The notes beneath the pieces were generated by a model. The model ran no database searches. It saw only the letters and a program-made list of their open reading frames with translations, and had not been told where the DNA came from. Below, one piece after another: positions 6,601 through 63,832 of a stretch of 64,000 nt of DNA (position 1 is the first letter of the stretch; each line of letters opens with the position of its first letter). Both the position numbers and the translations under genes were made by a program. The stretch comes from a virus: positions 31,809-95,808 of IMG/VR virus record IMGVR_UViG_3300022928_002150, one strand, 5' to 3'.

Positions 6601-8098
6601 ATCTGACACACAGCAGGAGCTCGTTGATAAACTAAGAGCTGCTAATGTTCTGAGACTAGCGGAACTGAGTCTTCTACCTCTAACGAAAGAAAGATTGGAG
6701 CGCCAAAACGATCTTGCAGATCTTAATAACGCACAAAGTATTAAAAAAATAAAACTACTAACCCGACAGAAAATACTTGAGGCGGGTCTTACTGCAGGGC
6801 AATCACGTCGTCAACAGATAATAAATCAACAAAGACTATTAGAGTTAGAGATTAGACAAAGTAAAGAAAAAGAGCTAGAGCTGCGTAACGCTATAGACGA
6901 GAATACTGTCTCGAATGTCGAGAATTCAAAGAGAACCTTAGCGATCGCCACAGCTACAAGAGAGCAGAAGCAGGCTGAACTTGATATTTTAATGCGTTCT
7001 ACTGAAGCAATGGAGCAGTATAGACTAGCCATTGCTAACGGTTTTGAATCAGGGCTACAACAGGCTATAAATGATTTATTAACAGGAGCCGAAAGCAGCT
7101 TCAGAGATAGTTTATTAAACTTAACAAAATCTGTATTTGAAACTTTAGCGGGTAAATTTTCGGAGATTATGGCCGATTCGATGATAGATATGATAGCCCG
7201 TAGTAATTTGGGGTCTAAAATTTTTCGTGGAATGACTTTAACAGATAAAGTTGCAGAAGGCCATAGAAAGGGTGCAAAAATACTTGACACACAACTCGAT
7301 ACAACTAGTACTAATATGGCCACAACACTTAAAGACGCCTTTACAAACGGAGCAGCCGCACTTGCGGAGACTATTAGAGCTGCTTGTGCTTCTTGTGCCT
7401 GTGATAAGGCAAACGACAGTAACATGTCTGAGATACTTAATCCGTCTCCGGCGAACCCTGTAAAAACTGCCCAAGATGTAGGAGAAGCAGCGGCAAAGCC
7501 TTTAGAAACCGCTACTAACGAAGTAAAGAAAGTACTAAACGAAGAGACAACTTTTACAGAAACGATTAAAACTTCTTTTTCTAAGTTTTTTGAAGGTGCA
7601 AAAGGATTAGGAAGTGATCTTGCTGGATTCTTGAAAGGGTTCGGGACAGGTCTAGCAAGTTTCTTGAAAAGCTTTTTAGCTAGTCTTACAGGAGTAGCAT
7701 CTGGTGGAGGAAGTATACTTAGCACTGTTTTTGCAGTAATAGGTTCAATATTCACAGGAGGAGCAGCGCCGGTGCCCTTAGCTAATGGAGGTGTAGTAGA
7801 TAAGCCGACCTATGCACTAATAGGAGAAGGTAGGTATAATGAAGCTGTTATTCCTATGCCCGATGGGAAGAGAGTCCCTGTAGAGTTAAAAGATAAAAGA
7901 ATAGGGTCAAACCAGAATAATAATGTTACAGTTAATGTTAGTATGGGAGAAGGGGGCAGAACCTCTACTTCCTCAACGCAGGAAGAGTCTGGTAGAGACG
8001 CTGTTAAACTAGGAAATATAATAGCTAAGGCAGTACAAGAGGAACTTCAAAATCAAAAGCGCTCTGGAGGGATACTTAGCCCATACGGAGCTGCATAA
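3689..8098 (+). CDS. Tape measure protein
   Basis: 1469 aa, Ala/helix-rich, KAEPELLDELGI motif, C-terminal ANGG...GEG..EAVIP. Confidence 0.9.
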   Translation: MAKRNKVYIDVVIDDKGTTKKVALSQKQLGEAAAAAGNQVQNTDRRLKGAAQASSNATKNFSKMSQGISGGLVPAYATLAASLFAVSAVFQFLKDAGNLETLQAGQVAYAGATGIAMRTLTEDIIQATDAQIAFQDAASAASIGVAAGLSADVLTRLGAAAKSTSVILGRDVTDSFNRLVRGVTKAEPELLDELGIILRLDTAMENYKTQLGLGEVELNAFQRSQAVANEVLDQAENKFGRILKITAVAPNKFNKLGKAFDDILIQIKGVAAAVAGPFADVLIKTPELAGAAILLLVSGPLKAAIPGLQNMGEKTKEVAKLAEASFTKASDELERYKKSASNFELLGTKGAGGLKSAAAGDAADILKAANAGGGKRGPLRKLTGDVDKITNEVALKMKKGAMAGEGAYKKMSLKIRRDFISAMDDIIAANDIAAGKVSSRWEIATKKMQIGIKRTEVVFKGVFASIKAGAAIAARAVSIAFSAIGWIGIIYTLYEVIEGFRKTEEVAKKSNDVFAVQRDRVARLVEDYKNFSAIQKILSEEGGNIISTYAAFGNLANSLSNSAFKNFGKALSESSDDLTAAREKAEDEVKRLERARDRVQGRRSLSFIEDRSAFDYGAAVDLERIQELTEEIAEAQKKTTGSTIALLAEMNPEKFGKFKEFLDIQIDSFNAQDESLIKNSRSANEYFNKLQALRTAKVIEKSQIEELLQARELFVEVSKGVAAYDKAITDVTKSGTTLVNKIMPVSEAQKYLTALNNLDTAIQKLEADQNNLNTNDPRIKGIQDRKARLIEERDLVTSIISFEGKQATELLNKRQQITANLRNADGITKSRLNTELKIFENDQKKLKLEKDIATLEETARINTLKLSPEELQKIKNLRVEIQLLGDRNNLARDALALQELNNEIRKIDTAADIAKTQRQAGFLITTQSLTGLQKQLAAEAKKESDLTAIIETNRQKILETTVDENGELRVLSDTQQELVDKLRAANVLRLAELSLLPLTKERLERQNDLADLNNAQSIKKIKLLTRQKILEAGLTAGQSRRQQIINQQRLLELEIRQSKEKELELRNAIDENTVSNVENSKRTLAIATATREQKQAELDILMRSTEAMEQYRLAIANGFESGLQQAINDLLTGAESSFRDSLLNLTKSVFETLAGKFSEIMADSMIDMIARSNLGSKIFRGMTLTDKVAEGHRKGAKILDTQLDTTSTNMATTLKDAFTNGAAALAETIRAACASCACDKANDSNMSEILNPSPANPVKTAQDVGEAAAKPLETATNEVKKVLNEETTFTETIKTSFSKFFEGAKGLGSDLAGFLKGFGTGLASFLKSFLASLTGVASGGGSILSTVFAVIGSIFTGGAAPVPLANGGVVDKPTYALIGEGRYNEAVIPMPDGKRVPVELKDKRIGSNQNNNVTVNVSMGEGGRTSTSSTQEESGRDAVKLGNIIAKAVQEELQNQKRSGGILSPYGAA

Positions 8099-22922: not shown

Positions 22923-24696
22923 AAGCTAGACATCCTTCATCATCTAAGCTATCAAATATATACTGACGAAGAGCCTCATCAGATACATTTTCTGCTCTTT
23001 TGTACGCTTCACTTCTGAGATAGTAAAGAGTCTTTACACCTCTTTTCCATGCCATCATATGAATAGCGTGTAGTTCTTGCTTGGATACATTTGCAGGAAA
23101 GAATACGTTTAATGACTGACTCTGACATATAAACTCCTGCCTATCGGCTGCAAGATCAATAATCCACTTCTGGTCTATCTCTACTGCTGTTTTAAAAACA
23201 TCTTTAGTCCAATCATCTAGAAATTCTAGATGCTGCACAGAGCCTCCGTTCGTAGTAATACTTTTCCAAACTTCTTCAGTATCTTGATTTAGCTCTTGTA
23301 GAAGATTTTCAAGATATTCGTTTTTAAGTAAACTGCTACCGCTTTTAGTTTTTTGAGTAAAAGCATTAGCACGATATGGCTCAATAGAAGGAGATGTATT
23401 CCCACATATAATACTACTAGAGGCATTAGGAGCAACGGCCAGCAGATGTGCATTACGGACACCATGGCCCTCTCCATCAGGACACTCTCCTCGTTCGATG
23501 GCGAGTCGTTTTGTTTCATTTACAGCCTCTTCTTTAATTCTCTTGAACATAGTCATGTTCTTTCCTTTTGCCATTGCGCTTTCAAAAGGTATATTCTGCC
23601 TTTGTAAGTAGGCATGAAACCCCATAGCACCTAGGCCAATACTTCTTTCATTTTCCGCACTAAAGGACGCTTTCCATAGCTGTGGAGGAGCGCTCTTAAT
23701 AAAGTGGGTGAGAACATTATCGAGCATTCTTACTAAGTCTGGTATAAATTGGTCGTTGTTTTTCCACTCGTCAAATTCTTCCAGATTTACACTTGATAGA
23801 CAACATACTGCTGTTCTCTCTTCATTTGTAGGTAAAGTAATTTCCGAGCATAGATTAGATTGATGCACTCGTAACCCAAGTTTTTGTTGAAACTCAGGTA
23901 CTGCTTTATCGACTGTATCCCGAAACACAATATAGGGCTCTCCTGTCTCTACGCGATTTTGAATTAATTTTACCCACAGTGTTTTTGCAGATACAACTTT
24001 CTTAACTTCTCCTGAGTGTGGATCAATTAGGGGCCATGAGTCATCAAACCCAGGCTCCCGTGTAGCACCTTCGATGAGTTGCATAAAATCATCCCCAACC
24101 ATAATACCATGATGAAGATTGGTAGATTTACGATTAATGTCTCCACCCGTAGGTTTACGAACATCCAAAAATTCTTCTACTTCAGGGTGAGAAATATCAA
24201 GGTATGCTGCATAGCTTCCACGACGTGTTACGCCCTGAGAGAAAGCAAGCATCTCAGCATCAACAACTTTTAGAAAAGGAATTACACCCGTACTTTCGGA
24301 GCCATTGCTCGTTTTCGAGCCGACACTCCGAACCCCGGTCCAACAACCTCCGACCCCGCCACCGACTGACGATAAGAAAGCATTTTCAGTATAATGGTCT
24401 GTTATACCTTCCCTACTATCATCCACATAATTTAAAAAACAACTAATTGGTAGCCCTCTCTTTGTACCTCCATTAGATAGAAGCGGAGTAGAGAACATAA
24501 ACCACAGCTTACTAGCGTAGTCATATAATCTCTGTGCGTGCTCCTTATCGTCAGCAAAAGCACAAGCAGCTCTGGCGAAAGAATCTTGTGGAGAAGTCTC
24601 GCCCTCAATCATATATCTATCTTCTAGTGTTTTTAAACTAAACTCGGATAGATAGTTGTCTCTTTTATAGTTAATATTTATATTGTACTTAGGCAT
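22912..24696 (-). CDS. nrdA: Ribonucleotide reductase class Ia alpha subunit
   Basis: STP..SN, ISCF, SNLCSEI, APNASSS, KTLYY, C-terminal CLACEG. Confidence 0.95.
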   Translation of the reverse strand: MPKYNININYKRDNYLSEFSLKTLEDRYMIEGETSPQDSFARAACAFADDKEHAQRLYDYASKLWFMFSTPLLSNGGTKRGLPISCFLNYVDDSREGITDHYTENAFLSSVGGGVGGCWTGVRSVGSKTSNGSESTGVIPFLKVVDAEMLAFSQGVTRRGSYAAYLDISHPEVEEFLDVRKPTGGDINRKSTNLHHGIMVGDDFMQLIEGATREPGFDDSWPLIDPHSGEVKKVVSAKTLWVKLIQNRVETGEPYIVFRDTVDKAVPEFQQKLGLRVHQSNLCSEITLPTNEERTAVCCLSSVNLEEFDEWKNNDQFIPDLVRMLDNVLTHFIKSAPPQLWKASFSAENERSIGLGAMGFHAYLQRQNIPFESAMAKGKNMTMFKRIKEEAVNETKRLAIERGECPDGEGHGVRNAHLLAVAPNASSSIICGNTSPSIEPYRANAFTQKTKSGSSLLKNEYLENLLQELNQDTEEVWKSITTNGGSVQHLEFLDDWTKDVFKTAVEIDQKWIIDLAADRQEFICQSQSLNVFFPANVSKQELHAIHMMAWKRGVKTLYYLRSEAYKRAENVSDEALRQYIFDSLDDEGCLACEG

Positions 24697-25531
24697 TGAC
24701 TGCTACTCTCCTTCCAATATCCCTTAAATTGTCTGTTCCAATAGCATCATCACAATATGTTAATAAGTCCATTAGTTCATAATTTAGTAAAATTTGTTCA
24801 TAATTTTCATTAAGTGACTGAATATATTTATAGCTACCCGGAATGGGGCACGCGTCATAAATATTTAAAGCACTTCCAAACTCTTCTATAAGTCCTATCC
24901 CTCTTTTTGGGCCAATACCAGGAATTCCTGGTACATTGTCACCTTTATCCCCAGTTAAACACTTTAAAGAAATATATTCCTCAGGTTTACAATCATAATG
25001 CTCCCCCCAGTTATCTAATGTTACTTCTTTTCTGGTAACATATGAAAATCTAGATACATTACTGCCTATAAGAAGGTCCCAATCCCTGTCGCTAGAGACT
25101 AGCCAGATGTTATCTAAATTGTATTTATCTTTATTTTTTACTAAGTGAGCTGCTATATCATCTGCTTCGACTCCCTCATAGCGTAAAATAGGGTATTTTT
25201 CACTTAAAGTTTCAAGAGTTGCTTCATACTCCTCAAAAAACTCCTCAAAAGCAAGTTTCTCTGCTTCTGTTTGATCTGCAAATTTTTCTTTTCTGTTCAT
25301 CTTATACTCGGGCAAGATCATCTTTCTATAAGATGAAGAACCCCAATCCGCAGTTATAATAATATCTGCACATTTATAAGACTTTGCTAGACTTTCTACA
25401 GTCTGAACATAATCATATCTAAAATCAGATCGACCTTGATGTTTCCATCTAAAGGCTAAATTTAAAGAGTCAACTACTAGTGTTGACCCCGCTGCAGGTT
25501 TTTCTACAGTATCTTTAAAATTAAATGCCAT
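24689..25531 (-). CDS. 5'-3' exonuclease/flap endonuclease (T5 D15-like)
   Basis: EADD, SDRDWD, GDKGDNVPGIPGIGPK. Confidence 0.92.
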   Translation of the reverse strand: MAFNFKDTVEKPAAGSTLVVDSLNLAFRWKHQGRSDFRYDYVQTVESLAKSYKCADIIITADWGSSSYRKMILPEYKMNRKEKFADQTEAEKLAFEEFFEEYEATLETLSEKYPILRYEGVEADDIAAHLVKNKDKYNLDNIWLVSSDRDWDLLIGSNVSRFSYVTRKEVTLDNWGEHYDCKPEEYISLKCLTGDKGDNVPGIPGIGPKRGIGLIEEFGSALNIYDACPIPGSYKYIQSLNENYEQILLNYELMDLLTYCDDAIGTDNLRDIGRRVAVNA

Positions 25532-31275: not shown

Positions 31276-31980
31276 TTAAAGTCCCAAGGTTTCTTTTGAA
31301 GTTATATATTCTTTTACGAAGTCACTTCTAACTATATCTTTTATTTCAAAATCTATAAAATCGAAACATTCCATAGCTTTAAGTATTCGTATAAAGTCTC
31401 TTAAGCCGCTCTGACGTAAATCAGACTGTCGAAAGTCTCCACATAATATTACTCTGCAATTCTCTCCTATTCGAGTAATAATTGAGTCTAGCTCGTGAAA
31501 AGACATATTTTGACACTCATCTATAAGAATTGTAGCATTTCTTAGTGTAATGCCACGCACAAAAGAGGTTGTCATAAAATGAACTACGTACTTACTTTTT
31601 AAAACTTCGTATGCATCGCCCCTCTCAAACAGATCTATACATATATCCTTATATGGCTCCTCATATACGGAAGCCTTATCTTTTTCTGTACCTGGTAAAA
31701 AGCCTATATCCCTAGTAGATACTGCACTTCTAACTATCACTAGTTTTTCATACAACCCCTTGAATATATCGTCAAATGCCAGATATGAGGATATATAAGT
31801 TTTACCCGTTCCAGCGACTCCATGTAAGATTAAGTTTTTTTCGCTCTCAAATGCGAGTACTTGGTTTCTTGTTAGAGGTTCTACTGTTTTTAATTTTAAA
31901 TTAATAGCATTTAAGGTTTTAGGCTTGTGGCGTCTAGCGCCTCTATTTTGGCCTTTTACATTATTTATTTTGGATACCAA
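31276..31980 (-). CDS. phoH: PhoH-like ATPase
   Basis: GVAGTGKT, GFLPG, RGIT, DECQN, GD..QSD. Confidence 0.92.
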   Translation of the reverse strand: MVSKINNVKGQNRGARRHKPKTLNAINLKLKTVEPLTRNQVLAFESEKNLILHGVAGTGKTYISSYLAFDDIFKGLYEKLVIVRSAVSTRDIGFLPGTEKDKASVYEEPYKDICIDLFERGDAYEVLKSKYVVHFMTTSFVRGITLRNATILIDECQNMSFHELDSIITRIGENCRVILCGDFRQSDLRQSGLRDFIRILKAMECFDFIDFEIKDIVRSDFVKEYITSKETLGL

Positions 31981-59279: not shown

Positions 59280-59371
59280 GCTACCTGTTCTACCATTAGA
59301 AATAGCGCATAAAAGCCTATAAAACCTACTGCTAGTACGTCTAGCCATTCTCTCCACGTCCAATCTTTCAT
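59276..59371 (-). CDS. 31-aa membrane peptide (not in ORF track)
   Basis: MKDWTWREWLDVLAVGFIGFYALFLMVEQVA, coupled at both ends. Confidence 0.5.
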   Translation of the reverse strand: MKDWTWREWLDVLAVGFIGFYALFLMVEQVA

Positions 59372-59751
59372 TATAGTATTCCTTCTATCATATTCATTAA
59401 TACAGCAGTACCACTTACAGCACTGCCTATCATGATTGCTTTGTCATTCCAAACACTACCTACAAATACCCAGCTGCAAGCAGCCACGAAGTAAGCAAGT
59501 TGCCCAACATTTTCAAATCCTGCACTCATGAGAAATACGCCAGTCACTCCAAAGAGTGTAGCAGCCCACTTCACATAGCTATCAATAGTACCAGTAGGTG
59601 TTACTGGTGTCATGTCATCTACTTGAGCTTGCAGTTCCTCCATCTCATGCTTGAGCCGCTTCTTCTCTGCATTGAGCTCCATAGCAAGACGACCAGCTTT
59701 AGACATCGTACTGTCTTGAAACTTTTCTTTTATCTCTTTATCTTCGATCAC
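59371..59751 (-). CDS. Coiled-coil plus 3-TM membrane protein
   Basis: GTG after AAGGAG; three hydrophobic helices. Confidence 0.6.
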   Translation of the reverse strand: MIEDKEIKEKFQDSTMSKAGRLAMELNAEKKRLKHEMEELQAQVDDMTPVTPTGTIDSYVKWAATLFGVTGVFLMSAGFENVGQLAYFVAACSWVFVGSVWNDKAIMIGSAVSGTAVLMNMIEGIL

Positions 59752-59938
59752 CGTCGTAAGCTCCTTCCATATACGTTCCTGGCACACTGAAATATGCTCT
59801 CACTACATGAAGCGAGCGTAGTAATGCGTCATCTTGCCAATAGTTTGGAGCTACTTCATCCATCGCCATCTCAATAGCAGCATCAAGTTCTTCTAGCACA
59901 ATCTTGTCCAGCCCTTCACTTGTAATATACTCTCTCAT
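59738..59938 (-). CDS. Hypothetical protein
   Basis: ORF downstream of tmRNA. Confidence 0.55.
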   Translation of the reverse strand: MREYITSEGLDKIVLEELDAAIEMAMDEVAPNYWQDDALLRSLHVVRAYFSVPGTYMEGAYDGDRR

Positions 59939-59964
59939 TTTTTTGCCTTTTGCTATTAAAAAAA

Positions 59965-60268
59965 TTCGTCCCACACTTTGATGACAAGGCAGTGGGCTCC
60001 TCGCAAGATTAGGCCGCTAAGGCGAGCTCTTGTTCGTAAACGTCGTTTGCGTTTATTTTAGGTTTTCGTCCATTTACGGGAGGTTGCTGCCCGATTCTCC
60101 ACTTGCTTTTCGATTGCTTGTCGATACTGAGTTCAGCCCCGTCAAAAACACATAGGCTGCGAAACTGTTGAGTTTATCGACTTACTTTGTATTCCTATGT
60201 GCTTTTGGTGGAGCTGACGGGACTTGCACCCGTGTCCAAACTTTCTATTACAAGTTTCTACGAATATT
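59965..60268 (-). ncRNA. ssrA: Circularly permuted (two-piece) tmRNA; tag ANDVYEQELALAA
   Basis: Acceptor piece GGACACGGGTGCAAGTCCCGTCAGCTCCACCA (60237-60206) precedes GGGGCTG 5' end (60140); G3.U70 pair; tag frame 60050-60009. Confidence 0.92.
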
Positions 60269-60451
60269 TTAGTCTGCGATGCACCAGTGTCGAACTGTCG
60301 AAGGCACGAAACCGCAGATATTTTTTACCCAGTCTAAAGATGCAGGGTCTATAGAATAGTCTCGTCCGCCGTAGCGTACTACAAATTTTTCTGGAACTTC
60401 ACAGGGAAATCCGTACTTTTCACCTTCGTCAAAGGTTAGAAAAACTCTCAT
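60269..60451 (-). CDS. Hypothetical protein, probably cotranscribed with tmRNA
   Basis: KYGFP motif; downstream of promoter. Confidence 0.55.
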   Translation of the reverse strand: MRVFLTFDEGEKYGFPCEVPEKFVVRYGGRDYSIDPASLDWVKNICGFVPSTVRHWCIAD

Positions 60452-60481
60452 TCTTTTCTTTCTCTTTTTTGATTTACAACT

Positions 60482-60510
60482 ATTATACCTGTTTTTATTT
60501 TCAAAGTCAA
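60482..60510 (-). promoter_or_regulatory. Sigma70-type promoter (drives ORF and tmRNA)
   Basis: TTGACT-17-TATAAT. Confidence 0.85.
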
Positions 60511-60602
60511 GAATATTTTTTAGCATAGCACAAATAAAATATTTTTTAGTTTCTGTATTCCCGCTCAACGCATTCTACCGATCACCTGGTCAAAAATATT
60601 AC

Positions 60603-60631
60603 TTGTAATATGCCAAAAGGTATGATAAAAT
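60603..60631 (+). promoter_or_regulatory. Promoter for + strand non-coding unit
   Basis: TTGTAA-17-TAAAAT with TGn extended -10 and AAAAATATTAC upstream. Confidence 0.65.
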
Positions 60632-60637
60632 TTATTT

Positions 60638-60976
60638 CTAATCGTAAGATTAATTCGGTAAGTCATTATTTCTTACCAACTCATACGAACAAATCATAAT
60701 GCATTATTTCGTACAAGAACAACGTCGAATCCTTGAAGAGAAGACGTTGTGCTACTACGGGATTTATGCAAGATATGATGAGTGAGTGACATCCACGTAA
60801 AAGCTAAATTTAAACTAAAACGAATTCGGTAACTATTTTGACCAAACTGTCTTGACCACGTAATGGTCAAATATATTCGTTTTAAACCCGCCTCAATTTC
60901 CTCTAACTTAACTCAAAATTTATACTTTTTTTCCAACATCCCCAATTTGATCCAATTCGCGATGGGTCGTTTTTTG
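60638..60976 (+). ncRNA. Putative structured ncRNA or replication origin
   Basis: No ORF; several hairpins including a ~110-nt irregular rod; terminator-like hairpin plus T run at end. Confidence 0.5.
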
Positions 60977-61107
60977 CTTTTTAACTGCAAAGCTTTTTAA
61001 CAATTACTTTTAATTTGTTCTACTTGTGGTAGGGCCACTAGTTACATTAGAATTATACAAGAGGTGCTAGAACCCCGCTTCTATGTTCAGAAACGGGTAT
61101 TGTAGCT

Positions 61108-61491
61108 CTAGGTGATTAAAAATTCGTCTGAAGGAGACCTGTAAGGGTCTTGAGGGGTATCAGTCTGTTGAGCACCCGCTGTAGCTTTAGTTAGGGCGTC
61201 TTCTAGTGCTTTTAATGAGGCTTTTGGAGCTTTATCAAGCCCTGTAAGGGACTCTGGCTCGCATAAGAGCATATCTGCAATTGAATTTACAATTTCTACT
61301 TTCGTGATCGGCACATCACCAGTCTTAGATCTATAGACTTCTCTTCGGTACACGCCTTCGCGTGAGAGTTTTCCGATTACTGATTTCGTACTTTTTCTAT
61401 ACTTTTCTGCAAGCGCAGACACAGTTTCCTTGCTTGGATTTCGCACATACTCTTGTATAAGAGCCTGAGCCTCCTCCTGGCTATAGTTCAT
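61108..61491 (-). CDS. A2/D3-like HTH DNA-binding protein
   Basis: NY....Y..NP..ETV..LA....K...S.I.KLSREGVY. Confidence 0.65.
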   Translation of the reverse strand: MNYSQEEAQALIQEYVRNPSKETVSALAEKYRKSTKSVIGKLSREGVYRREVYRSKTGDVPITKVEIVNSIADMLLCEPESLTGLDKAPKASLKALEDALTKATAGAQQTDTPQDPYRSPSDEFLIT

Positions 61492-61512
61492 ATTAGTATC
61501 TCCTTTTCAGGG

Positions 61513-61809
61513 TTATGGGTTGGGTATTTCTGGGGATTCTAGAGTAAAGTTACCTTCTTCATCTGAATAAACTGTTACGACCCCGTACTCTAGATAACGT
61601 ATCTCAGTATTCTCTAGCCCTACATGTGAGATATAATTATGTAGAATCTTTTTATATTCTCCTTCAAGCTCTATCGCCTTCTCTTCTATCTGCAAAGCTG
61701 CCATTTCTAGCTGTGCGAGTGCGTCGTAGTACTCCTCTAATTCAATAGATTTTTCGTCTAAGTTATGCTTTAGGGTTCGGTTAACAGGGAACGGGATTAT
61801 ATTGGACAT
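61513..61809 (-). CDS. Hypothetical coiled-coil protein
   Basis: MSNIIPFP start motif. Confidence 0.6.
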   Translation of the reverse strand: MSNIIPFPVNRTLKHNLDEKSIELEEYYDALAQLEMAALQIEEKAIELEGEYKKILHNYISHVGLENTEIRYLEYGVVTVYSDEEGNFTLESPEIPNP

Positions 61810-61810
61810 T

Positions 61811-61990
61811 TTAACTCTCCAAAATTTGTATCACAATTTGTCCTTTTTCAACAAATATATCTACATCTGTGTTGTCAGACAAATTGAAGGTACTACAAAT
61901 CTCTGCGGGGATGTTAAATAATATATTCTCATTATCCCCTGGGATATTCTCAAACACCTCCTCAAAGGCATATTGATACTTCGTCTTCAT
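61811..61990 (-). CDS. AbrB/MazE-like small DNA-binding protein
   Basis: IP.EI.......D.V.I.VE.G.IVI. Confidence 0.5.
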   Translation of the reverse strand: MKTKYQYAFEEVFENIPGDNENILFNIPAEICSTFNLSDNTDVDIFVEKGQIVIQILES

Positions 61991-62024
61991 AAATTTTTCC
62001 AAAATTTTTTCAGGTGAAAAACAA

Positions 62025-62053
62025 ATTATATGATACTTTTGTTAAAAAGTCAA
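62025..62053 (-). promoter_or_regulatory. Sigma70-type phage promoter
   Basis: TTGACT-17-TATAAT. Confidence 0.85.
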
Positions 62054-62077
62054 GAACTTTTTTCGTTGATGTGATAT

Positions 62078-62117
62078 AAAAAAAGACCCTCAAAGGAGAA
62101 AACTCCAAAGAGGGCCA
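62078..62117 (-). terminator. Terminator of ncRNA unit
   Basis: GGCCCTC-TTT-GGAG-TTTT-CTCC-TTT-GAGGGTC-TTTTTTT. Confidence 0.8.
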
Positions 62118-62492
62118 TAAACACAGCTATATGCTGTTTGTTTTAAGACTCGTAGCAGTCAATAGCAATTTTCGAGTCTGTTCCTGCTGGCTTTTTATAT
62201 ACCATTTAGGATTGGTATGTCCCCATCCTTCGTACATACCTGCTACTCCACACAATAGGTAGGGCTATATTAGAGTAACCCAATCGGTCTTTTGTTTGAT
62301 CCAGATACCGACGATGTGAAACTGGAGGGCAACTCTCAGTGTTGTCCCGCGACTGACGTACACAGTATTTTTCGTCTGCTGTACATGGCATTGACGTCCC
62401 GTTATAAAGCCCATAAGGGGATTTTTTGTCGTTGTTATAGTCTCCGACCTGACCCGTTAACAAACATTTCGTGTTGTTAACTCTTATCTCAT
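62078..62492 (-). ncRNA. Putative large structured ncRNA (~415 nt) of unknown class
   Basis: Own promoter and terminator; about ten stems, GAAA loops, H-type pseudoknot; no credible ORF. Confidence 0.65.
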
Positions 62493-62498
62493 GTAACT

Positions 62499-62528
62499 AT
62501 TATACAAACATTTTGACCAAAATGTCAA
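62499..62528 (-). promoter_or_regulatory. Promoter for ncRNA unit
   Basis: TTGACA-18-TATAAT. Confidence 0.8.
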
Positions 62529-62542
62529 GAGAAATTTTAACC

Positions 62543-62752
62543 TCAGGTCAATAATTTCTTTTTTCGAAGGTTAAGCTCTTTTCGAGCTTTTACTCTGAGT
62601 TTTTTCTCGAGTCTTCGGAGATCAGAGTCTGGCTTATTACAAAGCTCCTCAAGCTCTGAGGTCTTTACTCCAGCAATAGAAAATACTTTTATAGTCTTCG
62701 TATTTGTTTTTCTGTCGAAAAAAATTTCGTTTGGTTTCCATTTTACAGCCAT
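62543..62752 (-). CDS. Hypothetical basic protein
   Basis: AAGGAG RBS. Confidence 0.6.
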   Translation of the reverse strand: MAVKWKPNEIFFDRKTNTKTIKVFSIAGVKTSELEELCNKPDSDLRRLEKKLRVKARKELNLRKKKLLT

Positions 62753-63381: not shown

Positions 63382-63410
63382 ATTATAGTAGTATTTAGGT
63401 TATTTGTCAA
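63382..63410 (-). promoter_or_regulatory. Sigma70-type phage promoter
   Basis: TTGACA-17-TATAAT. Confidence 0.85.
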
Positions 63411-63832
63411 GAACTTTTTTTCTTTTGCTTATTAATTTTTTTCATTACTAAGTGCTCAAAAGCTCTTTCTAATCCACGAGCTTCTACTTCGTATGGATCA
63501 AACCAATAACCATATCGATGTGGAGGGAAAGTTTCTAAGCCTTCTTTTGTCATTTGAAACGCATGAACACACTCATGCGCTACTATGCCTATAAGTAGTC
63601 CTTCGTCTATATTATTTTCTACCATCCACAGCTTATTTAGTACAACAGTATACTCATGAAACGCATCTACAGTTTCTAACTCTGCATATCTATCTGGATC
63701 CATCCCACTAACGCCTAGGTTAATAATCGGCATATCAAATTTTTCGTACTTGTGGGCAAACCCGTCTATTACTTTCTCAAAATGTTTTACCACAACATCA
63801 ATAGTCAACAAGCATAAATCCATTTTATCCAT
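63407..63832 (-). CDS. Putative zinc metallopeptidase
   Basis: AHECVH..Q and P.E.EA motifs. Confidence 0.7.
   Translation of the reverse strand: MDKMDLCLLTIDVVVKHFEKVIDGFAHKYEKFDMPIINLGVSGMDPDRYAELETVDAFHEYTVVLNKLWMVENNIDEGLLIGIVAHECVHAFQMTKEGLETFPPHRYGYWFDPYEVEARGLERAFEHLVMKKINKQKKKSS

Follow-up and report, generated by a model that had tools for sequence, protein, structure and literature searches.

The DNA analyzed here, referred to as the window, is a stretch of 64,000 nucleotides that closes the 95.8-kb IMG/VR virus record IMGVR_UViG_3300022928_002150 (positions 31,809–95,808). It belongs to a marine siphovirus whose PolA-type polymerase shares 44% identity with the enzymes of T5-like Vibrio and Aeromonas phages. 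One homologue of its gene w69 is labelled Planktomarina sp. at NCBI, and this label together with an alpha-type two-piece tmRNA points to a host of the Roseobacter group. A metagenome contig of the same phage (L017) runs from the last base of the record (window 64000) into record position 185, and the first bases of the record recur near its end; the genome is thus circular or circularly permuted and the unit described below does not lie at a physical end.

The locus and the boundaries of the unit

Toward the end of the window 3.2 kb (59364–62542) separate gene w69 from gene w173. This segment comprises the RNA unit under study, the genes w63 and w98, the helix-turn-helix (HTH) gene w127, a second ORF-free unit (60586–60976), w99 and the two-piece tmRNA. 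It is lineage-specific, since in 40 of the 43 IMG/VR relatives that carry a w69 homologue this gene is followed within 250–700 nt by the homologue of w173, and it can be regarded as an insert rich in RNA genes. The preliminary description had located the unit between two paralogous HTH genes and near the tmRNA, and both statements are borne out: the proteins of the flanking genes w100 and w127 are paralogous and the tmRNA lies 1.8 kb away, the sole such feature of a 64-kb window in which no tRNA genes were found. The main elements of the locus are the following:

62528–62499, minus strand: sigma-70 promoter TTGACA-18-TATAAT, matching the consensus at 12 of 12 positions
62078–62492, minus strand: predicted transcript of about 415 nt, bounded by the consensus matches of promoter and terminator
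62116–62078, minus strand: intrinsic terminator, a GC-rich interrupted hairpin (GGCCCUC..GGAG-UUUU-CUCC..GAGGGUC) followed by U7, seen in the minimum free energy (MFE) fold
60009–60272: permuted tmRNA of the alpha two-piece type, detected with Rfam and ARAGORN

The sequence places the predicted +1 at the A of AUGAGAUAA at 62492, the seventh base downstream of the -10 hexamer. Positions within the unit are numbered with the prefix W, where W1 is window 62500 and the count runs downwards on the minus strand. The terminator was overlooked by a simple scanner because its stem is interrupted, and was recognized in the MFE fold. The GC content is 0.41–0.47 inside the unit and 0.31–0.35 in its immediate flanks. 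Promoter, strong terminator and elevated GC content were all anticipated by the preliminary description. The next promoter (62053–62025, 11 of 12 consensus positions) begins 25 nt past the terminator and drives a separate operon formed by w63, which shows a weak, sub-threshold match to MazE/AbrB-like proteins, w98 and the HTH protein w127. The unit therefore has its own predicted promoter and its own terminator around a stretch devoid of a gene, as judged from consensus matches, and the complete promoter match and the hairpin with its U7 tract support a discrete RNA. Taken with the searches and the comparison presented below, it is probably a self-contained transcription unit of about 415 bases that falls in no known RNA family and whose evolutionary behavior resembles that of a gene for a non-coding RNA.

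The -35 box of the promoter sits within an inverted repeat, TTGAC-N6-GTCAA (62513–62528), and is overlain by a 17-nt motif, ATTTTGACCAAA[A/C]TGTC (62510–62526), which recurs at 60835–60851 as part of the second ORF-free unit. The motif shared by the two ORF-free units is probably a common operator, and its position, like that of the inverted repeat, suggests control by a phage DNA-binding protein. A palindrome, TTGACCA-N5-TGGTCAA (60848–60868), adjoins the second copy of the motif. Elsewhere in the region three early promoters (60482–60520, 62025–62063, and 63382–63420) share an extended 39-nt sequence (AAAAAAGTTCTTGAC...TATAAT), and the promoter of the RNA unit is of another type.

Predicted fold and search for known families

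The unit had been presented as a highly structured RNA with many stems, a long-range pairing and an H-type pseudoknot. Every stem listed at that time can be located (W20/36, 117/136, 153/168, 220/234, 240/260, 283/297, 322/349, and 362/374), and so can the complementary segments UCCCC/GGGGA (W80/277) and the interleaved segments UCCAG/UCGGU/CUGGA/ACCGA (W175/190/197/213). The Boltzmann ensemble, however, sustains only part of them. Three hairpins at the two ends of the transcript are robust:

62456–62481, minus strand: H1, the 5′ hairpin, 9 bp with the loop ACGAAAU, pair probability 0.92
62119–62179, minus strand: the 3′ hairpins H7 (AGACUCG/CGAGUCU, 0.95) and H8 (inner part 1.0), directly before the terminator, present in the MFE fold and in the ensemble

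H2 and H3 reach a moderate probability of about 0.65, the two arms of the pseudoknot compete with each other (0.42 and 0.51), and H4–H6, like the long-range pairing, have values of about 0. The overall stability is ordinary as well. The MFE corresponds to z = -2.16 with the terminator (3 of 100 shuffled sequences fold equally well) and to z = -1.57 without it (6 of 100), and the antisense strand gives z = -1.41, so that the folding energy is not clearly below that of shuffled sequence. The ideas of high structure, of a pseudoknot and of a ribozyme are thus unsupported, which is not to say refuted, and the case advises caution in general: a promoter and a terminator around many drawable stems do not amount to evidence of structure.

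The covariance-model comparison proposed in the preliminary description places the unit in no Rfam family. With the models of Rfam 15 at gathering thresholds, the tmRNA is the sole match in the whole window, and at E ≤ 10 the region 61900–62700 yields matches at chance level, among which the one to RprA rests on the terminator. The classes examined without a match include RNase P, 6S, SRP and group I/II introns, which confirms the earlier failure to assign the unit to any of these, as well as GOLLD, ROOL, HEARO, OLE, raiA and small ribozymes. A tRNA-like or second tmRNA identity was rejected, as ARAGORN finds none, and inspection by eye, which counts about 9 GGA triplets where some 6 are expected, likewise discards a CsrB-like GGA sponge.

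DNA homologues of the unit were found neither among GenBank phages nor, by ORF patterns or a degenerate DNA pattern, in IMG/VR; nothing similar occurs in 12 related records or in the 43 loci with a w69 homologue, and two patterns found no match in GTDB genomes. JGI metagenomes returned only L017, which is 99.4% identical to the window and carries an identical unit; a candidate in a further contig, L008, was rejected as a chance match. L017 lacks 21 nt (7 codons) of the HTH gene w127 (window 61131–61151) and shows three other differences in 3.7 kb. A search for antisense targets in the phage genome gave chance-level matches only. In the best complementary one of these, 12 bases (W338–349) are perfectly complementary to the region of translation start of the mRNA for the large subunit of RNR (window 24695–24706), which is at the level of chance (E = 1.9).

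Stand-alone phage RNAs of unknown function are a known kind of element, even though this unit belongs to no known family. Phages T4 and T5 make stable RNAs of unknown function next to their tRNA genes (in T4 the species 1 and 2 RNAs, rnaC and rnaD). The unit resembles these, compared by description only, in being a stand-alone, terminator-bounded unit of a lytic T5-like phage with predicted transcription by the host polymerase, in a region that also holds a tmRNA; it differs from them in its much greater length and in the lack of tRNA genes in the 64-kb window. GOLLD and ROOL are very large, widely distributed RNAs, longer than 415 nt, found in the neighborhood of tRNA genes, and share with the unit the condition of large non-coding RNAs of unknown function tied to phage DNA. 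They are large ornate RNAs that constitute Rfam families and form RNA-only cages (bioRxiv 10.1101/2024.12.08.627333). The unit, in contrast, measures about 415 nt, matches no covariance model at E ≤ 10, has an ordinary folding energy and was encountered in just two sub-lineages, both belonging to one phage group, and thus lacks the size, the distribution and the tRNA neighborhood of these RNAs. The suggested kinship with GOLLD and ROOL, and the roles of scaffold, decoy or ribozyme proposed with it, consequently find no support in an RNA of ordinary stability whose family lies within one phage lineage.

Reading frames of the unit and its homologues

Two open reading frames of the transcribed strand are relevant to the argument:

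62206–62463, minus strand: 85-aa ORF with a TTG start and no Shine-Dalgarno (SD) sequence; frame not conserved, codon score -0.03 per codon
62127–62237, minus strand: 36-codon ORF preceded by GGAG-8-AUG, as read from the sequence

The earlier statement that the unit contains no ORF led by a ribosome-binding site is accurate for the first and fails for the second. The TTG of the 85-aa ORF falls inside the 9-bp stem of H1, and its codon usage, scored by log-odds derived from 37 long genes of the same phage, compares with 0.42 ± 0.14 for real genes and 0.13–0.38 for small neighboring genes; it is most likely not a gene. The AUG at the 5′ terminus of the window's transcript is followed by AGA UAA and stops at codon 3. 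No ORF of the unit has a Pfam or PHROG match, and a 62-aa ORF of the plus strand has no homologue.

The 85-aa ORF has a single match among about 5.8 billion protein clusters, P0001, a protein of 108 aa from a contig of 96,390 bp, and a complete HMMER search of 1.84 billion representatives added no further homologue. P0002 (119 aa), from the same cluster as P0001, shows no difference from it up to residue 100, where the frame changes, so that two sequences at least 97% identical are frameshifted against each other. P0001 and P0002 are the only homologues in about 15 billion proteins and represent one related phage of about 96 kb, from which P0004, a homologue of w69 with 83–86% identity, presumably derives as well. 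The preliminary description had named conservation of the 85-aa frame as the finding that would speak against a non-coding RNA, and the frame is not kept. Residues 9–30 and 66–90 of P0001 match frame A of the window, residues 24–69 match frame B (a 49-aa ORF) and the tails of P0001 and P0002 match further frames, giving the overall succession A-B-A-C. Homologues that hop between frames are the decisive non-coding signal at this locus.

To compare bases, P0001 and P0002 were back-translated to degenerate RNA and aligned to the unit, and only the 198 determinable bases were scored. Identity between the unit and its relative is 87% over these bases and 89% from W46 onwards. The window has extra bases at W72–74 (3 nt) and W109 (1 nt), and the relative has one extra base each after W227, W289 and W300 and, after W314, two (P0001) or three (P0002). 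The 1-nt indels lie mostly in predicted loops and single strands (the loops of H4 and H6, A-rich linkers), the placement of that at W300 being ambiguous. The region of the 5′ hairpin is reshaped in the relative, where it is 8 nt shorter. Identity is about 94% in W46–105 and W196–375 and 76% in W106–195, which allows the unit to be divided as follows:

62396–62425, minus strand: conserved block 1 (W76–105), 17 of 17 determinable bases identical to the relative
62306–62395, minus strand: variable region (W106–195) containing H2 and H3, 76% identity at determinable bases
62156–62305, minus strand: conserved core (W196–345), about 95% identical despite indels of 1, 1, 1, and 2–3 nt

The frame change begins at the 1-nt indel of W109 (window 62392), within the variable region. 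The homologues have therefore kept nucleotides and not a reading frame, with indels of 1, 1, 1, 1, and 2–3 nt at about 89% identity. A neutral gauge for this value was sought in the same phage group, where four-fold sites are saturated (41–46% identity) when a tail protein is 86% identical. The genes of w69 and P0004 are 92% identical at codon positions 1 and 2, and the more distant P0006, P0009, and P0012 reach 74–79%. By scaling, and not by a measured synonymous divergence, these figures suggest that neutral sequence in the lineage of P0001 would be at most about 76% identical, and on the same scaling the estimate would fit the variable middle of the unit and not its flanks.

The same degenerate alignment bears on the predicted helices. 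Most predicted pairs fall in stretches that are invariant between unit and relative, and H3 and H7 each contain a single broken pair. The stem sequence of H1 is wholly replaced, and the corresponding codons (AUH-AUH-GCN-AAR-UGG-GCN-AUG-GU) again permit a hairpin of 9 bp with a similar loop, and inner pairs of H2 are possibly compensated, provided that the third codon positions cooperate. A shuffle test of pair compatibility is powerless on such degenerate sequence (p = 0.12 for H1, 0.92 for H2, and 0.04 for H3).

The main rival to an RNA reading is that the unit codes, or recently coded, for a small protein, which we consider unlikely. A leaderless mRNA of the relative would then encode a beta-rich, perhaps Ig-like protein of 108–119 aa, and the copy in the window would be a frameshifted derivative, either a decaying and still transcribed pseudogene or a protein whose +1/-1 frameshift is compensated, so that the conserved segments at its N and C termini stay in a single frame. 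A known leaderless phage gene is lambda cI, transcribed from P_RM, and the ORF of the relative is similar in that it begins at the AUG corresponding to the first base predicted to be transcribed in the window and runs almost to the terminator. Stop triplets are depleted in two frames of the sense strand only (15 vs. 23.8 ± 3.1 expected, p = 0.003; antisense strand normal, 19 vs. 18.6) and the longest open run reaches 94 codons (p = 0.017); this depletion keeps a coding origin alive. In addition, the indels at W109 (+1) and W227 (-1) compensate each other, which brings the two segments of highest conservation into a common frame (A) in the window, and P0001 gives a sub-threshold match to the Pfam family Big_15 (bacterial Ig; E = 0.0012) that spans the frame junction.

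Other observations speak against a protein gene. The Big_15 match reaches 19 bits where the cut-off is 27, and the frame-B ORF of the window does not give it; two pieces of weak evidence, an AlphaFold pLDDT of 36 and a language-model recognition score in the range of shuffled sequences, do not favor P0001 as a protein; searches of the PDB and of a protein atlas with P0001 were uninformative, and no paralogous fragments of it occur elsewhere in the phage genome. Unlike cI, the AUG of the window leads to a stop after two codons, the TTG is buried in a stem with no SD sequence, and along each path the codon usage resembles that of non-coding sequence (-0.04 per codon for the path of the relative). 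The unit thus displays neither a conserved frame nor a usable start nor the codon usage of the genome. At least five frame-changing indels accompany about 35 substitutions, and four of them lie within a stretch of 150 nt that is about 95% identical, a balance that fits neither a recent pseudogene, for which the indels are too numerous, nor an old one, for which the substitutions are too few. For the segment W290–372 the window, P0001 and P0002 each use a frame of their own, and identity there is still about 93%, and the frameshift between the latter two arose at 97% identity or more. Assembly errors do not account for the frameshifts, since the unit is identical in L017, an independent metagenome contig.

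Possible function of the unit and related ORF-free units

The lack of a conserved frame together with non-coding-like codon usage favors a function at the level of RNA. We regard the unit, with somewhat better than even confidence, as an orphan non-coding RNA restricted to its lineage, in which selection acts on the nucleotides, through the RNA or, less likely, through the DNA. Host sigma-70 RNA polymerase would transcribe it early in infection from the consensus promoter and the strong terminator would end the RNA. Selection would act on the nucleotide sequence and not on a protein, with W76–105 and W196–345 as the conserved core, H1–H3 free to vary and small length changes tolerated, mostly in predicted loops. 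The RNA may act in trans, its conserved core most likely serving to bind a protein or a second RNA, and the 5′ and 3′ hairpins may stabilize a product that would be abundant and early. Its synthesis could be gated by a DNA-binding protein that occupies the inverted repeat covering the -35 box, with the neighboring HTH or AbrB-like proteins as candidates. The ordinary folding energy, the near-zero probability of H4–H6 and of the long-range pairing, and the occurrence in two lineages only count against the RNA reading. If functional, the RNA would add a new family to a very short list of mid-sized RNAs encoded by phages.

Two further explanations are less probable than a protein gene. The unit could be an element acting as DNA, such as a transcription-primed replication origin or a cluster of protein sites, or a functionless leftover of a mobile 3.2-kb insert. 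Such a reading accords with the absence of the segment from 40 relatives, with the operator-like motif shared with the other ORF-free unit and with the unexceptional folding; we judge it improbable, as the consensus promoter and the strong terminator mark out a discrete RNA, conservation extends over some 250 nt rather than short sites, and the unit has inside it neither iterons nor an AT-rich unwinding element. Least probable of all, and very unlikely in our estimation, is that the transcript serves as the mRNA, or as a dual-function RNA, for the 36-codon ORF in the manner of a type I toxin or small regulatory peptide: the SD-like GGAG at 8-nt spacing, the highest codon score of the unit (+0.14, for a 42-aa TTG-started ORF that contains it) and a C-terminal part common to the tail of P0002 speak for it, but the ORF is probably out of frame in the relative and so not conserved, the 1-nt insertions after W289 and W300 there apparently shifting its first third and bringing a UAA in frame, its start lies within the predicted H5 stem, it matches no family, and it would leave the conservation of W76–105 and of the bases upstream of its AUG without explanation.

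The interpretation as a non-coding RNA gene gains context from related contigs with paralogues of the HTH genes, which carry other ORF-free units with promoter and terminator at the corresponding site, immediately upstream of the HTH-operon promoter:

L004, 4507–4872: ORF-free unit of about 330 nt, identical in L003 (about 588–960)
L002, 2656–3100: diverged copy of the unit of L004 with a 75-nt hairpin insertion
L005, 2070–2328: ORF-free unit of about 225 nt

These units are like that of the window in their promoter, with a TTGAC..TCAA spacer motif, and in their 3′ end, which consists of a hairpin, UUUAUG and a CCCUCUU terminator. They are unlike it in their interiors, which do not align; lengths range from 225 to 415 nt, and a homology with the unit of the window is conjectural. 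None has an Rfam match and their folding energies are ordinary. Between the units of L004 and L002, RNAalifold predicts 84 pairs, of which 3 are compensatory, 6 one-sided and none broken.

The position of these units hints at a recurrent slot for fast-evolving RNAs. As a tentative proposal, which we hold to be rather doubtful, the T5-like marine phages of the Roseobacter group may possess a fixed slot upstream of an operon of HTH regulators, occupied by stand-alone RNAs that do not align with one another and share promoter, operator and the architecture of the 3′ end. The RNA of the window would then be a new mid-sized class with a conserved core, maybe derived in part from coding sequence, and would act early on a host or phage factor; a partly coding origin would explain the depletion of stops. 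If the proposal is right, an abundant group of marine phages would have a recurrent slot with quick turnover of RNAs, and the slot would be a tractable site for studying the role of phage non-coding RNAs at the start of infection. As regards the tmRNA of the same segment, a relative of 91.8 kb (L020) has a permuted tmRNA (tag ANDEVYDLAIAA) at 6625–6968, about 3 kb downstream of its w69 homologue, which indicates that in this phage group the tmRNA predates the RNA unit.
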